Shown here piece by piece: positions 4,901 to 10,900 of a DNA stretch of 64,000 bases. Every line of letters starts with the position of its first letter. The stretch's first letter is position 1. Source of the DNA: Escherichia coli O127:H6 str. E2348/69 (GTDB taxonomy: Bacteria > Pseudomonadota > Gammaproteobacteria > Enterobacterales > Enterobacteriaceae); NCBI RefSeq assembly GCF_000026545.1, contig NC_011601.1. One strand, written 5' to 3'. Made by a program: the position numbers.

Positions 4901-7900
4901 GGCGCGCTGTCGGCAGCGGGAAACATCTGCTGTAACTCGCTGATTAGTGTCGCGTCATCATCGCCCAGTAATATCGCGCAAATCCCCCGCTCACTTTCTG
5001 CCACCAGGCAACGGCCCAGCTCACAATCAGCCAGCGCGTAACGCACCGCCAGATTTTTGCCACCGTGACGGAATTGTTTAGCCGTCATGCCCAGCGTTTC
5101 GTCGGCTTTGCGGTAGTAACTGCTGCTGTCGGGGAATCCGGCGTTAAGAATAGATGTAGTCACGCTCTCCCCTTTCGCCAACAATTCGCGCAAACGGCGA
5201 GCGCGCCAGGCCTGTTGCCAGGCTTTAGGCGTCATTCCGGTAGTCGCTTTAAACAACCGATGCAAATGAAATGGACTCATCGCCACCTGATCGGCTAAGG
5301 CTTCCAGCGTTACAGGCGTTTCCTGTTCCAGAAGTCGGCAGGCGTGGGTAATTTTATCAAGGCGATGTTGCCGGGGATTGGCTTTGTCTGGCTGACAACG
5401 TTTGCAGGGACGAAAGCCAGCGGCAAGCGCCTCGCTGGCATTTGCGTAGAAGGAGACATTTTCCCGCAAGGCATGTCTGGCTCGGCAAGACGGACGGCAA
5501 AAGATACCCGTGGTGCGCACGGCGAAAACGAATTCGCCGTCGGCATTCGGGTCGCGGGCTAAGACAGATTGCCAGCGTTGATCGTCAGTTAAGCATGTGG
5601 CGTATTTCATAATCAGCTCCCTGGTTAAGGATAGCCTTTAGTCTGCCCGGTCACCATCGCACAAAAACCAACAATCTTGCGCTTTAATTTTTTTCGCTGA
5701 TAAGGAAGCTTTTAAACTGCGGCGACATCCAGGCTTTAAAATTATCGCCCTCTTTGGTGATCATGTAGACCGCCAGTCCTTCCCGGCGAACAACCTCTTT
5801 GGCTTTCTCCGGCCCCAGTACCATTAAGCCAGTATCCCAGGCATCGGCTTCCAGCGCCGTCGGGGCAATCACCGTCACGGATACCAGATTGTGTTCGATA
5901 GGACGCCCGGTTTGCGGATCGATAACATGAGAAAGACGTTTGCCGTCCAGTTCGTAATAGTTACGGTAGCTGCCAGAGGTACTAATCCCATGACCGTTGA
6001 TATCCACCACGGCCTGAACCGCGTTTTCTTTATCGGTTGGTTTTTGAATCGCTACCCGCCACGGCTGGCCTGCACCGTTCATACCACGGCTGTTCAGCGC
6101 GCCGCCCACCGACACCAGATAGCGGGAAATCCCTTCCTGCTCCATCAAGCGTGCCAGGTGATCCGCCGCATAACCTTCGCCGACGGTAGAGAGATCGACA
6201 TATAAATCTGGCAGGTCTTTTTGCAGGTATTGCTGATGCGACTGATTAATGACCGTCAGGTGCTGTAAGCCGGTTTTGGCTTTCATCGCATCGATCTGTT
6301 CCTGGCTCGGAATTTGAACCGGCTGTTGTTCCGGGCCAAAACCCCACAGATTCACCAGCGGCCCGACGGTTATATCCATCGCGCCATCGGTCTTCGCGCC
6401 AATGCGCAGCGAGGTAGTGACGATATCGGCCATCGCTTCACTTACCGGCCACGGCGACAAACTTTGCGAGTCGTTAAAGCGCATCAGCACGGAATCTTTT
6501 TTATAGGTCGAAAGCAGCTGATCGTCAGCGTCCAGCTGGGTCTGAATCTTTTCTTTAAGTTCGGCACTGCGTTTGGCGTCAATGCCCGGGATGCTGGCAC
6601 GCCAGAAGGTACCCATGGTTTTGCCTTCAAGAACGGTAACTTCAGTAGCGTGGGTTTTGGCGGGTTGTGGTTGTTGATCGCAACCAACAAAGAAGAGCGC
6701 GGCAGCCAGCAGTGCCACGCGGGTAAAGCTTATTTCCATACGTGATTATCCTCATGCGAACGGTCGCAAGAGTACACCAAAAAACTGTGTTTGTACGCTG
6801 AAAACAATGAAAAAAGGGCCCGCAGGCCCCTTGTTCGATATCAATCGAGATTAGAACTGGTAAACCAGGCCCAGAGCTACGATGTCATCGGTGTTGATGC
6901 CAGCAGCGCGAGTGAACTGGTTGTCGTCCAGCAGGTTGATTTTGTAGTCAACGTAGGTGGACATGTTTTTGTTGAAGTAGTAGGTCGCACCAACATCAAC
7001 ATATTTCAGCAGATCTTCGTCGTCGTAAGTACGACCAGCGATGTTGGCATTCAGGTTTTTACCTTTGGACTGCAGGTAAGCTACAGAAGGACGCAGACCG
7101 AAGTCGAACTGGTACTGTGCAACCACTTCAAAGTTCTGAGCTTTGTTCGCCCAACCTAAATCACCAGCCAGAGTTGCGTTGTAAGTCTGGGTGTACTGAG
7201 CAGCCAGGTATACATTGTTAGCGTCGTATTTCAGACCACCAGTGTAGGTTTCTGCACGATCGCCGTTACCGATGCCATAATTGTTCTGCTCTGCGGTACG
7301 TTTGGAGCTGGAGATTGCACCACCGAAGCTGAAGCCTTCACCGATGTCATAAGTGATAGAACCACCAACGCCGTCACCGTTCTGTTCCAGAACATCACGA
7401 CCATTGTTGGTCACACCAGTCATACCTTCGCCAGACGGGCTACCGTTTTTACCCTGGTACTGAACAGCAAAGTTCAGACCGTCAACCAGACCGAAGAAGT
7501 CGGTGTTACGGTAGGTCGCGAAACCGTTACCACGCTGCTGCATGAAGTTATCAGAATCGTAGGTATCACCACCGAATTCTGGCAGTACGTCGGTCCAAGA
7601 AGTAACATCGTAAACAACGCCGTAGTTACGACCATAGTCAAAAGAACCAACGTCCTGGAATTTCAGACCAGCGAATGCCACACGGGTCCAGGAACTATTG
7701 TCACTTTCAGGTTCGTTACCTTGAATCTGATATTCCCACTGACCATAACCGGTCAGTTGATCAGTAACCTGAGTTTCACCTTTGAAGCCAAGACGCATGT
7801 AGGTCTTGTCGCCATCTTTAGAGTCGTTATCGGAGAAATAGTGCAGGCCGTCAACTTTACCGTACAGATCTAATTTGTTGCCGTCTTTGTTGTAAATTTC

Positions 7901-10900
7901 AGCAGCGTTTGCTGCGCCTGCTACCAGCAGAGCTGGGACCAGGAGGGACAGTACTTTAACTTTCATGTTATTAACCCTCTGTTATATGCCTTTATTTGCT
8001 TTTTTATGCCACTGCATACTGATTAACCCTCATTAATCAGTCGGCAAGTCCATTCTCCCCAAAAATGCAGAATAATCCAACACGAATATGATACTAAAAC
8101 TTTTAAGATGTTTCATTTATCGCTATAGATGTTTCAAAATGTAAATATAAGGGAACTTTTTAAGATTATTGCGGAATGGCGAAATAAGCACCTAACATCA
8201 AGCAATAATAATTCAAGGTTAAAATCAATAACTTATTCTTAAGTATTTGACAGCACTGAATGTCAAAACAAAACCTTCACTCGCAACTAGAATATCTCCC
8301 GCTATCATCATTAACTTTATTTATTACCGTCATTCATTTCTGAATGTCTGTTTACCCCTATTTCAACCGGATGCCTCGCATCCGGTTTTTTTTACCCTTC
8401 TTTACACACTTTTCATTATTCTGTGCTACCACAGAAAAACTATAACGCTTGTTAACTATTTCACAAATAATTAACATCAGCATAATTTCCAGCAATCTTC
8501 GTTTATTTGCAATTAATTTCATTGGGCTTTTTGTAGGTTATTTGTACAGCAAAATGGCGCTTGTACATCTATTTCCCCCAATGCAGGATGATAAATATCA
8601 CGGGAGAATAGAAAATCATCAATCAGGTAAGAGTCTGGAATTTCACACTGTACCCTTTATACTGCCCTATCACTTCGCGAAGTTTTAACAGGTCATAAAC
8701 ACGAATGCGTCAGAAAGAGACAACGGCCACGACCCGCTTTTCACTCCTACCGGGGAGCATTACCCGCTTCTTTTTACTGTTGATCATTGTGTTACTGGTG
8801 ACGATGGGGGTAATGATACAAAGTGCCGTTAACGCCTGGCTGAAAGATAAAAGTTACCAGATTGTCGACATTACCCACGCAATCCAAAAGCGCGTCGATA
8901 CCTGGCGTTACGTGACCTGGCAGATCTACGACAACATTGCCGCGACGACCTCCCCCTCCTCCGGCGAAGGTTTACAAGAGACGCGCCTGAAACAGGATGT
9001 CTACTATCTGGAGAAACCACGCCGCAAAACGGAAGCGTTAATCTTTGGCTCTCACGACAACTCAACGCTTGAGATGACTCAACGGATGTCCACCTATCTG
9101 GACACATTGTGGGGCGCAGAAAATGTACCGTGGTCGATGTATTACCTGAATGGTCAGGATAACAGTCTGGTGCTGATCTCAACCCTGCCCCTCAAAGATC
9201 TCACCTCCGGATTTAAAGAATCGACCGTCAGCGACATTGTTGATTCACGTCGTGCAGAGATGTTGCAACAGGCCAACGCCCTCGATGAACGCGAAAGCTT
9301 TTCTAACATGCGCCGCCTGGCCTGGCAGAACGGTCATTACTTTACCTTGCGTACCACCTTTAACCAGCCGGGACATCTGGCAACGGTTGTGGCTTTTGAT
9401 CTGCCGATTAATGATTTGATCCCACCGGGTATGCCGCTGGACAGTTTCCGCCTTGAGCCAGACGCGACGGCAACGGGAAACAATGAAAATGAGAAAGAAG
9501 GGACGGATAGCGTCAGTATCCACTTTAACAGTACGAAGATTGAAATCTCCTCGGCACTCAACTCTACCGATATGCGCCTGGTCTGGCAGGTTCCTTACGG
9601 CACCTTACTGCTGGATACGTTGCAAAACATTCTGCTGCCACTGCTGCTGAACATCGGTTTGCTGGCGCTGGCGTTATTTGGCTATACCACATTCCGCCAT
9701 TTCTCCAGCCGCAGTACAGAAAGCGTCCCCAGCACGGCGGTCAATAACGAATTGCGCATTTTACGGGCAATTAATGAAGAGATAGTCTCACTGCTGCCGC
9801 TCGGCCTGCTGGTTCACGATCAGGAATCGAACCGCACAGTCATAAGTAACAAAATTGCCGATCATTTGCTGCCGCATTTGAATCTGCAAAACATCACCAC
9901 CATGGCGGAACAGCATCAGGGGATTATTCAGGCGACGATCAATAACGAGCTGTATGAGATCCGCATGTTCCGCAGCCAGGTTGCGCCGCGCACACAAATT
10001 TTCATTATTCGCGATCAGGATCGCGAAGTGCTGGTAAACAAGAAACTCAAGCAGGCGCAGCGTCTGTATGAGAAAAACCAGCAGGGGCGGATGACCTTTA
10101 TGAAAAACATTGGCGATGCGCTGAAAGAACCCGCACAGTCCCTGGCGGAGAGCGCGGCTAAACTCAACGCCCCGGAAGGCAAACAACTGGCGAATCAGGC
10201 AGATGTGCTGGTGCGGCTGGTCGATGAAATACAGTTAGCGAACATGCTTGCGGACGATAGCTGGAAAAGTGAGACGGAGCTGTTCTCCGTGCAGGATTTA
10301 ATTGATGAAGTTGTGCCTTCAGTGTTGCCTGCCATCAAGCGTAAAGGTCTGCAACTGCTGATTAACAATCATCTGAAAGCACACGACATGCGCCGCGGCG
10401 ATCGCGATGCCTTACGACGTATTTTGCTGTTACTGATGCAATATGCCGTGACCTCAACGCAATTGGGAAAAATCACCCTTGAGGTTGATCAGGATGAGTC
10501 CTCCGAAGACCGCCTGACGTTCCGTATTCTGGACACTGGAGAAGGCGTAAGCATTCATGAAATGGATAATTTGCACTTCCCGTTTATCAACCAGACCCAA
10601 AACGATCGCTATGGCAAGGCGGACCCGCTGGCATTCTGGCTGAGCGATCAACTGGCACGTAAACTGGGCGGTCATTTAAACATCAAAACGCGGGATGGGC
10701 TTGGTACTCGCTACTCTGTGCATATCAAAATGCTCGCAGCTGACCCGGAAGTTGAAGAGGAAGAAGAGCGTTTACTGGATGATGTCTGCGTAATGGTGGA
10801 TGTTACTTCGGCAGAAATTCGGAATATTGTCACTCGCCAGTTAGAAAATTGGGGTGCAACCTGTATCACACCCGATGAAAGATTAATTAGTCAAGATTAT

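Follow-up and report, generated by a model that had tools for sequence, protein, structure and literature searches.

A very probably recombinant mosaic ompC allele in Escherichia coli E2348/69 that keeps the porin barrel and differs from K-12 mainly in its surface loops

We find that ompC of the enteropathogenic Escherichia coli (EPEC) strain E2348/69 (O127:H6), the gene for the outer-membrane porin OmpC, is very probably a recombinant mosaic allele that lies at the usual ompC locus, keeps the porin barrel and displays surface epitopes that differ from those of K-12, its segments belonging to allele classes that are shuffled by homologous recombination. The gene lies on the minus strand of a stretch of 64,000 nucleotides (contig NC_011601.1 of RefSeq assembly GCF_000026545.1), here called the window, and all positions are counted from the first letter of that whole stretch. 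The allele combines at least two segment types that already existed, and the locus as a whole is a composite of a left flank of the type found in the lineage, a rare 3’ segment of ompC, and a common tract made up of the 5’ part of ompC, micF and rcsD sequence. Both halves of the gene differ from K-12; rarity is confined to the 3’ half. According to the explanation that we propose, a common 5’ segment (loops L1 to L3, the promoter, micF and the start of rcsD), of a kind present in about 10% of E. coli, would have been joined at about position 7476 to a rare and deeply diverged 3’ segment that encodes L4 to L8. The allele classes involved would be older than the genome that surrounds them, and their shuffling is what one would expect if a surface receptor had long been under frequency-dependent (diversifying or balancing) selection, with the barrel and pore kept and nearly all surface-exposed epitopes made unlike those of K-12.

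The mosaic structure is most readily seen when the allele is set against the population. Our sample consisted of 5,426 complete E. coli genomes, which gave 5,430 matching records for the whole gene. Only six of these records contain an ompC that is at least 95% identical over its whole length, namely three of the E2348/69 line together with Rb-50, A25 and CP090611 (98.3–98.4%); MB53 stands at 94.0% and every other record at 91.8% or less. The two segments of the gene, taken apart, have very different frequencies in these records (Table 1). Strain CFSAN061771 differs from the window at a single position in the 5’ 489 nucleotides of ompC and at 109 positions in the 3’ 627 nucleotides (p = 3.6e-28), and over 7478–9339, which takes in the promoter, micF and the start of rcsD, there are only two differences between them. 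When the gene is compared with that of A25 and Rb-50, 14 of the 19 differences lie inside a 133-bp patch at 7478–7610 that includes codon 137 (p = 4e-10), and a few others lie in L8. The CFSAN-like part gives way to the A25-like part at a crossover placed at 7475–7478. Differences are therefore clustered, and the segments between the clusters are near-identical to different parental types, as is expected of a recombinant allele.

The rare 3’ segment is also carried by the alleles of A25, Rb-50, CP090611 and MB53 (WP_024241984.1, WP_000865541.1 and WP_040063065.1), at 97.4–99.4% nucleotide identity. The OmpC proteins of A25 and Rb-50 are two to three residues away from that of the window and have their own 133-bp L3 patch, with serine rather than aspartate at residue 137, whereas the 5’ half of the MB53 gene, including L1 and L2, is unlike that of the window. 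The left flank (2000–6850) shows 21–29 differences from A25 and Z1323HEC0423 (the latter, the closest, at 29) and 141 from CFSAN061771. Z1323HEC0423 has this near-matching left flank yet carries an unrelated ompC of 375 amino acids, which argues for local replacement, and the rare 3’ segment occurs on at least three distinct flank backgrounds. Since the imported 5’ tract spans micF and the ompC promoter, the flanks cannot be regarded as simply untouched by recombination. We also note that in MB53 apbE is 83.5% identical to that of the window at the nucleotide level, with a synonymous divergence (dS) of 0.76; the half of this apbE that lies nearer to ompC (the equivalent of about 6000–6850) shows about 25% divergence, whether it is compared with the window, with K-12 or with SCPM-O-B-8794. 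The apbE-ompC spacer has an 11-bp indel, and the foreign tract directly adjoins the E2348-type 3’ segment of ompC.

The gene in question is the normal chromosomal ompC of E2348/69; it is intact and at its usual locus, and only the allele is unusual. The annotated ‘porin OmpC’ of E2348/69 matches the open reading frame at 100%, as do those of two other O127:H6 assemblies in a megablast search of the complete genomes. The gene order yojI-alkB-ada-apbE-ompC-micF-rcsD-rcsB-rcsC is that of K-12, in which ompC is MG1655 b2215, and ompC is divergent from micF, with rcsD on one side and apbE on the other. A family was assigned where a product scored above the curated cutoff of a model and better than with the models of OmpF and PhoE, Pfam PF00267 being that of general bacterial porins. 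The product scores 746.3 bits with the NCBIfam model for porin OmpC (NF007841; cutoff 484) and falls under the cutoffs of both the OmpF model (474.9 bits; cutoff 583) and the PhoE model (465 bits; cutoff 599). That E. coli genomes give two to four megablast matches each to the ompC query might suggest a paralogous porin of the ompN, nmpC, ompF or phoE kind, or an assembly chimera. We consider either to be next to impossible and have rejected both, given the syntenic position between micF/rcsD and apbE, the scores with the three models, and the presence of the same sequence in three independent assemblies of the E2348/69 lineage; the exact protein, WP_000865540.1, is moreover found in 156 blocks of public assemblies and always in the same context.

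BLASTP alignment of the window OmpC with that of K-12 MG1655 gives 332 identities in 373 columns (89%), with 8 gap columns. An earlier note on this DNA had described a divergent OmpC of 371 amino acids, against 367 in K-12, that retains the signal peptide and ends in LVYQF, and had placed the divergence in the downstream half. Both lengths and the divergence are borne out, and the identity to K-12 that would have spoken against it is not seen; residues 1 to 21 are those of K-12, and translation of the reading frame ends in LGLVYQF. The downstream half does differ, and it is there that the allele is rare, but the differences extend beyond it, L1 to L3 being changed as well. Solved mature OmpC chains begin to align at residue 22, consistent with a Sec signal peptide, and the C-terminal residue is the phenylalanine of YQF.

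Mapping the differences onto the porin topology, as the same note had advised, shows how strongly they are concentrated in the loops. We took the boundaries of loops and strands from an AlphaFold2 (AF2) model built on 70 diverse porins from a representative search (pLDDT 92.1, pTM 0.87), in which there are 16 barrel strands and an N-terminal strand, long outer loops, short periplasmic turns and an inward L3 with PEFGG at residues 129–133. Foldseek aligns this model with 2XE1, 2J1N and 2XE5 at TM scores of 0.95–0.96 and root-mean-square deviations of 1.7–1.8 Å. Among the 42 columns that differ from K-12, 33 fall in L1 to L8, with every loop affected, and 9 in strands; counted as changed residues, this is 31 of 131 in loops and 9 of 219 elsewhere (odds ratio 7.2, p = 4.9e-8). 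Length changes add a net four residues: five are gained in L7 (NANIAG) and one in the periplasmic turn T4 after strand β8 (Y-EG to IGEG), and one each is lost from L4 and L5. Two substitutions stand out, F182M in L4 and, in the constriction loop L3, G137D. The likeness to K-12 OmpC (PDB 2J1N; TM 0.96, 1.8 Å) thus covers the locus, promoter region, signal peptide, barrel strands, PEFGG of L3 and C-terminus, and the difference lies in the extracellular loops, the added residues and these two substitutions. The product would be an ordinary trimeric osmoporin of 16 strands that has a Sec signal peptide, a PEFGG constriction loop and a C-terminal phenylalanine, and its activity as a trimeric outer-membrane channel is predicted from the identity to K-12 OmpC and the conserved barrel residues. 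The IGEG indel (window 7337–7345, residues 208–210) and the change of FGI to FSF that follows it in β9 affect a periplasmic turn and a strand and no exposed loop; the IGEGF form of the turn is also found in OmpC of Citrobacter youngae.

The aspartate at residue 137 invites comparison with clinical OmpC and OmpK36 variants in L3 (2XE1–2XG6; the GD, TD and D insertions of OmpK36 in 6RCK, 7PZF and 7Q3T), in which the fold is the same, as it is in the window allele with its extra L3 aspartate. G137D, however, is a substitution and not an insertion, and it lies three to four residues downstream of the GD site. We considered it as a counterpart of the OmpK36 ‘GD’ resistance insertion and rejected this, as residue 137 is at another position and lies within the common 5’ segment; G137D is tied to no evidence of resistance. 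In the genomes compared, residue 137 is glycine in K-12, Z1323HEC0423 and E. albertii, aspartate in the window and CFSAN061771, and serine in A25, Rb-50, MB53 and SCPM-O-B-8794.

The regulatory region has changed far less. No difference from K-12 is found over window 7898–8146, a stretch that holds the 5’ untranslated region, the promoter and the core sequences of the OmpR sites C1 to C3; nearby, only positions 8147–8148 are changed, from GC to AT, just upstream of the C1 core and outside the core repeat. The 36-nucleotide C1 duplex of PMC2586830, TCCCTTGCATTTACATTTTGAAACATCTATAGCGAT, corresponds to window 8119–8154 and so includes these two positions. The GC to AT change is common to A25, Rb-50 and CFSAN061771, is absent from K-12, Z1323HEC0423 and MB53, and moves together with the common 5’ tract of ompC and micF. 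For C2, C3 and the -35/-10 hexamers we use the positions that we take them to have in the ompC promoter. The small RNA gene micF has one nucleotide unlike K-12, at position 8382 in the terminator stem, where a G.U pair of K-12 becomes a G-C pair. Judged from these alignments, the promoter controlled by EnvZ/OmpR appears essentially K-12-like, and micF and the OmpR site cores appear conserved. The stem of the ompC terminator has a single-nucleotide difference from K-12 at 6830, a position at which the window is unlike all six comparators.

The exact protein is already catalogued, and mosaic evolution of ompC is already published. Beck et al. 2016 (PMC5056734) examined 2,707 E. coli OmpC proteins, with more than 220 sequences among them, and reported variation mostly in L4, L5 and L7, ‘in many different combinations’; their S2 Table gives WP_000865540.1 (‘DEC1A’) as the representative of types L4-a3, L5-a8 and L7-l, and the window OmpC carries exactly these loop sequences under the matching accession. 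At the protein level there is thus no difference from that catalogue, which gives neither the segment structure nor the rarity of the allele, both of which come from the present analysis. Chen et al. (bioRxiv 10.1101/2021.09.21.461324; 2024 follow-up PMC12175518) described hypervariable regions of ompC (L1, L2, L4, L5 and L7) that recombine, about 15 major groups, and a conserved barrel. The window allele fits this mosaic porin pattern, and what we add to it is the placing of breakpoints for one allele (at 7475–7478 and around the patch at 7478–7610) and a 3’ class that is rare, branches deeply and is also present in a non-coli Escherichia genome. The loops that distinguish the allele include those known to matter for recognition: L4 and L5 determine recognition by CdiA-EC536 (PMC5056734), gp38 of phage PP01 contacts L5 and L7 (PMC12892980), and phage T4, which cannot use the OmpC of O157, needs a phenylalanine in L4 to adsorb (PMC5221442). 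The phenylalanine required by T4 is methionine in the window OmpC, through the F182M change, and E2348/69 is not lysed by T4 in spot tests (PMC8573959). The allele would most likely change how the porin is recognized by phages that bind OmpC, by class II CdiA toxins and by antibodies, and would leave channel function little affected.

Whether the classes are old, and what has kept them, depends on a comparison of divergence in ompC with that in the flanks, for which dS and the nonsynonymous divergence dN were estimated pairwise by the Nei-Gojobori method. Between the window and K-12, dS is 0.377 over the whole of ompC, 0.26 in non-loop (barrel) codons and 0.78 in the exposed loops, compared with 0.134 in apbE, 0.133 in ada, 0.109 in alkB, 0.095 in yojI and 0.044 in rcsD. 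In the 3’ half, the rare class stands at a dS of 0.41–0.44 from other E. coli classes and, equally, at 0.41 from E. albertii, and distances among the other E. coli classes and to E. albertii are 0.17–0.30. In a neighbor-joining tree of 124 barrel codons, the class formed by the window, A25, Rb-50, MB53 and SCPM-O-B-8794 lies inside Escherichia and is sister to every other Escherichia allele sampled.

Several points weigh against the interpretation that we favor. Positive selection is not demonstrated, as dN/dS in pairwise comparison with K-12 is below 1 both in the exposed loops (0.187/0.779 = 0.24) and in the barrel (0.065). The placement in the tree, resting on 124 codons without bootstrap, is indicative only. 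Because codon bias in ompC is strong, its dS is not directly comparable with that of the flanks, and the bias makes the contrast between them conservative within E. coli but complicates inference between species. Our search of the literature on E2348/69 and OmpC found no functional study of this allele, which was not among the CdiA-EC536 receptors tested by Beck et al., and the resistance of the strain to T4 may be due to O-antigen instead of OmpC. The earlier note had proposed allelic replacement of a kind typical of diversifying selection, between flanks in which micF and the OmpR sites look conserved and breakpoints ought to be sought. Local recombinational replacement holds up (dS 0.38, against 0.04–0.13 in the flanks) and the selective part finds no dN/dS above 1 behind it; micF (116.8 bits) and the C1 core are indeed intact, their changes being the single nucleotide in micF and the pair at 8147–8148, and the breakpoint search yielded the crossover in the gene and a 5’ tract that runs through micF into rcsD.

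These data bear directly on the possibility that the allele diverged in place within the E2348/69 lineage, with positive selection acting on point mutations and with no recombination. The clustering of amino-acid changes in exposed loops would suit such a history, as would the report, cited in 10.1101/2021.09.21.461324 from other work, that ompC is positively selected in E. coli. We nevertheless regard it as highly improbable. The dS of barrel codons, 0.26, is two to six times that of the flanking genes; the breakpoints are sharp and the segments between them identical to those of unrelated strains; the 3’ segment is found on its several flank backgrounds and in a non-coli lineage; and dN/dS is below 1. 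Together, the breakpoints and the dS values effectively refute point mutation in place, and the sharp segment boundaries, the elevated dS of ompC and the mismatch of the flanks point to recombinational replacement among old allele classes and not to recent point mutation. This leaves the question of where the rare 3’ class came from. Among GTDB species representatives, the best matches to the C-terminal half are ‘E. coli SCPM-O-B-8794’ (99% amino-acid identity), then C. youngae (85%) and E. albertii (83%); a further search for protein homologues of this half returned nothing above 86% identity, in a database that is presumably clustered at 90% and is therefore uninformative on the exact allele. 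A recent import into the 3’ half from outside Escherichia, for example from Citrobacter with its same pattern of L4, T4 and L5 lengths, is improbable in our view. It would account for the GMT-GVTxNGR, YDIGEGF and short-L5 architecture that C. youngae OmpC shares with the allele, for the fact that the best non-Escherichia matches are Citrobacter proteins, and for the equal distance of the rare class from other E. coli classes and E. albertii. The top non-Escherichia match, however, reaches just 85% at the amino-acid level and 82% at the nucleotide level, the 3’-half dS to C. youngae (0.56) is not below that between K-12 and C. youngae (0.48), L7 is unlike the Citrobacter type, and the barrel-codon tree puts the class within Escherichia. 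We accordingly rejected a recent import from any foreign genus in the sample, no non-Escherichia GTDB representative being closer than 85% in amino acids.

An origin nearer to E. coli has more to commend it. The ompC of SCPM-O-B-8794 (NZ_JAATUR010000027.1) is 96.6% identical to the window over the nucleotides of the 3’ half and encodes the same L4 to L8, with one amino-acid difference. Its flanks are at most 88.7% (rcsD) and 91.6% (apbE-ada-alkB) identical to those of every complete E. coli genome, and this low identity indicates a non-coli Escherichia lineage; the genome bears the label E. coli and is one of the GTDB species representatives. The 3’ class could thus be native to that lineage and introgressed into a few E. 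coli, EPEC1 included, or it could be a trans-species polymorphism that predates the split, a proposal that we hold to be a serious one, though short of an even chance. It draws on the match in L4 to L8 despite non-coli flanks, on the rarity of the class in E. coli (7 of the 5,426 genomes) and on the nesting of the E. albertii allele among E. coli alleles. Against it stand the single genome by which the SCPM-O-B-8794 lineage is represented; the ompC region of that genome (the equivalent of 6500–8100), which is more E. coli-like than its flanks, so that transfer from E. coli fits equally well; and a ratio of ompC dS to flank dS of about 0.3, the same as for E. albertii, which makes vertical descent of an old class indistinguishable from transfer. 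For the last reason we have also tempered any use of SCPM-O-B-8794 as proof of recent transfer between lineages. The proposal is compatible with the recombinant mosaic that we favor and refines only its origin. We suggest, tentatively and with less than even confidence, that the rare 3’ half is a deep-branching ompC class that is trans-specific within Escherichia, predates the coalescence of E. coli and E. albertii alleles, and has been retained in E. coli, at about 0.1%, through balancing selection acting over long periods on a receptor for phages and contact-dependent inhibition (CDI) or through interspecies introgression.

Table 1. Features of the ompC locus of E2348/69 (window positions)
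Feature	Position	Strand	Remarks
ompC coding sequence	6851..7966	-	371 codons and stop; product WP_000865540.1
Signal peptide, codons 1-21	7904..7966	-	identical to K-12 (alignments)
Common 5’ segment, gene nucleotides 1-489, L1-L3	7478..7966	-	at least 99% identical in 523 records
Rare 3’ segment, gene nucleotides 490-1116, L4-L8	6851..7477	-	at least 99% identical in 6 records; MB53 97.4%; rest at most 91.5%
Loop L1, residues 46-55	7802..7831	-	4 changes from K-12 (AF2 topology and difference map)
Loop L2, residues 83-91	7694..7720	-	5 changes from K-12 (AF2 topology and difference map)
Constriction loop L3, residues 116-144, PEFGG	7535..7621	-	one change from K-12, G137D (codon 7556-7558)
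Loop L4, residues 172-198	7373..7453	-	5 changes from K-12; Beck et al. type a3 (PMC5056734 S2 Table)
Loop L5, residues 223-236	7259..7300	-	6 changes from K-12; Beck et al. type a8
Loop L6, residues 263-274	7145..7180	-	3 changes from K-12
Loop L7, residues 304-316	7019..7057	-	7 differing columns from K-12, 5-residue insertion; Beck et al. type l
Loop L8, residues 345-361	6884..6934	-	2 changes from K-12, D354A and N361D
ompC intrinsic terminator hairpin	6813..6832	-	3’ of the stop codon
apbE (ftp), downstream flank	5684..6739	-	lineage type; dS to K-12 0.134, to A25 0
ompC 5’ untranslated region, promoter and OmpR C1-C3 region	7967..8154	-	alignment; C1 oligonucleotide from PMC2586830
micF small RNA gene, divergent from ompC	8300..8393	+	Rfam RF00033, 116.8 bits
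rcsD, upstream flank	8705..11377	+	first ~600 nucleotides in tract near-identical to CFSAN061771

Elsewhere in the window, the rcsB-rcsC spacer (about 12000–12400) has more than 50 differing columns per 200 bp in A25 and CFSAN061771, which fits an indel of about 115 bp. A transposase gene of the ISNCY family and an adjacent truncated hypothetical reading frame lie at about 51823–53004, between yfaU and glpC, and the remainder of the window is ordinary core genome, with ato, yfa, gyrA, nrdAB, glp, rhm and arn genes.

Conceptually there is nothing new in a recombining ompC with hypervariable loops, which is well documented, and the one mildly new point is that the 3’ half belongs to a deep and rare class that is also present in a non-coli Escherichia genome. 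Since the surface loops of OmpC decide which phages, contact-dependent toxins and antibodies recognize a strain, knowledge of the rare a3/a8/l loop set of E2348/69 should be useful for work on phage host range, CDI and vaccines in this reference EPEC strain.

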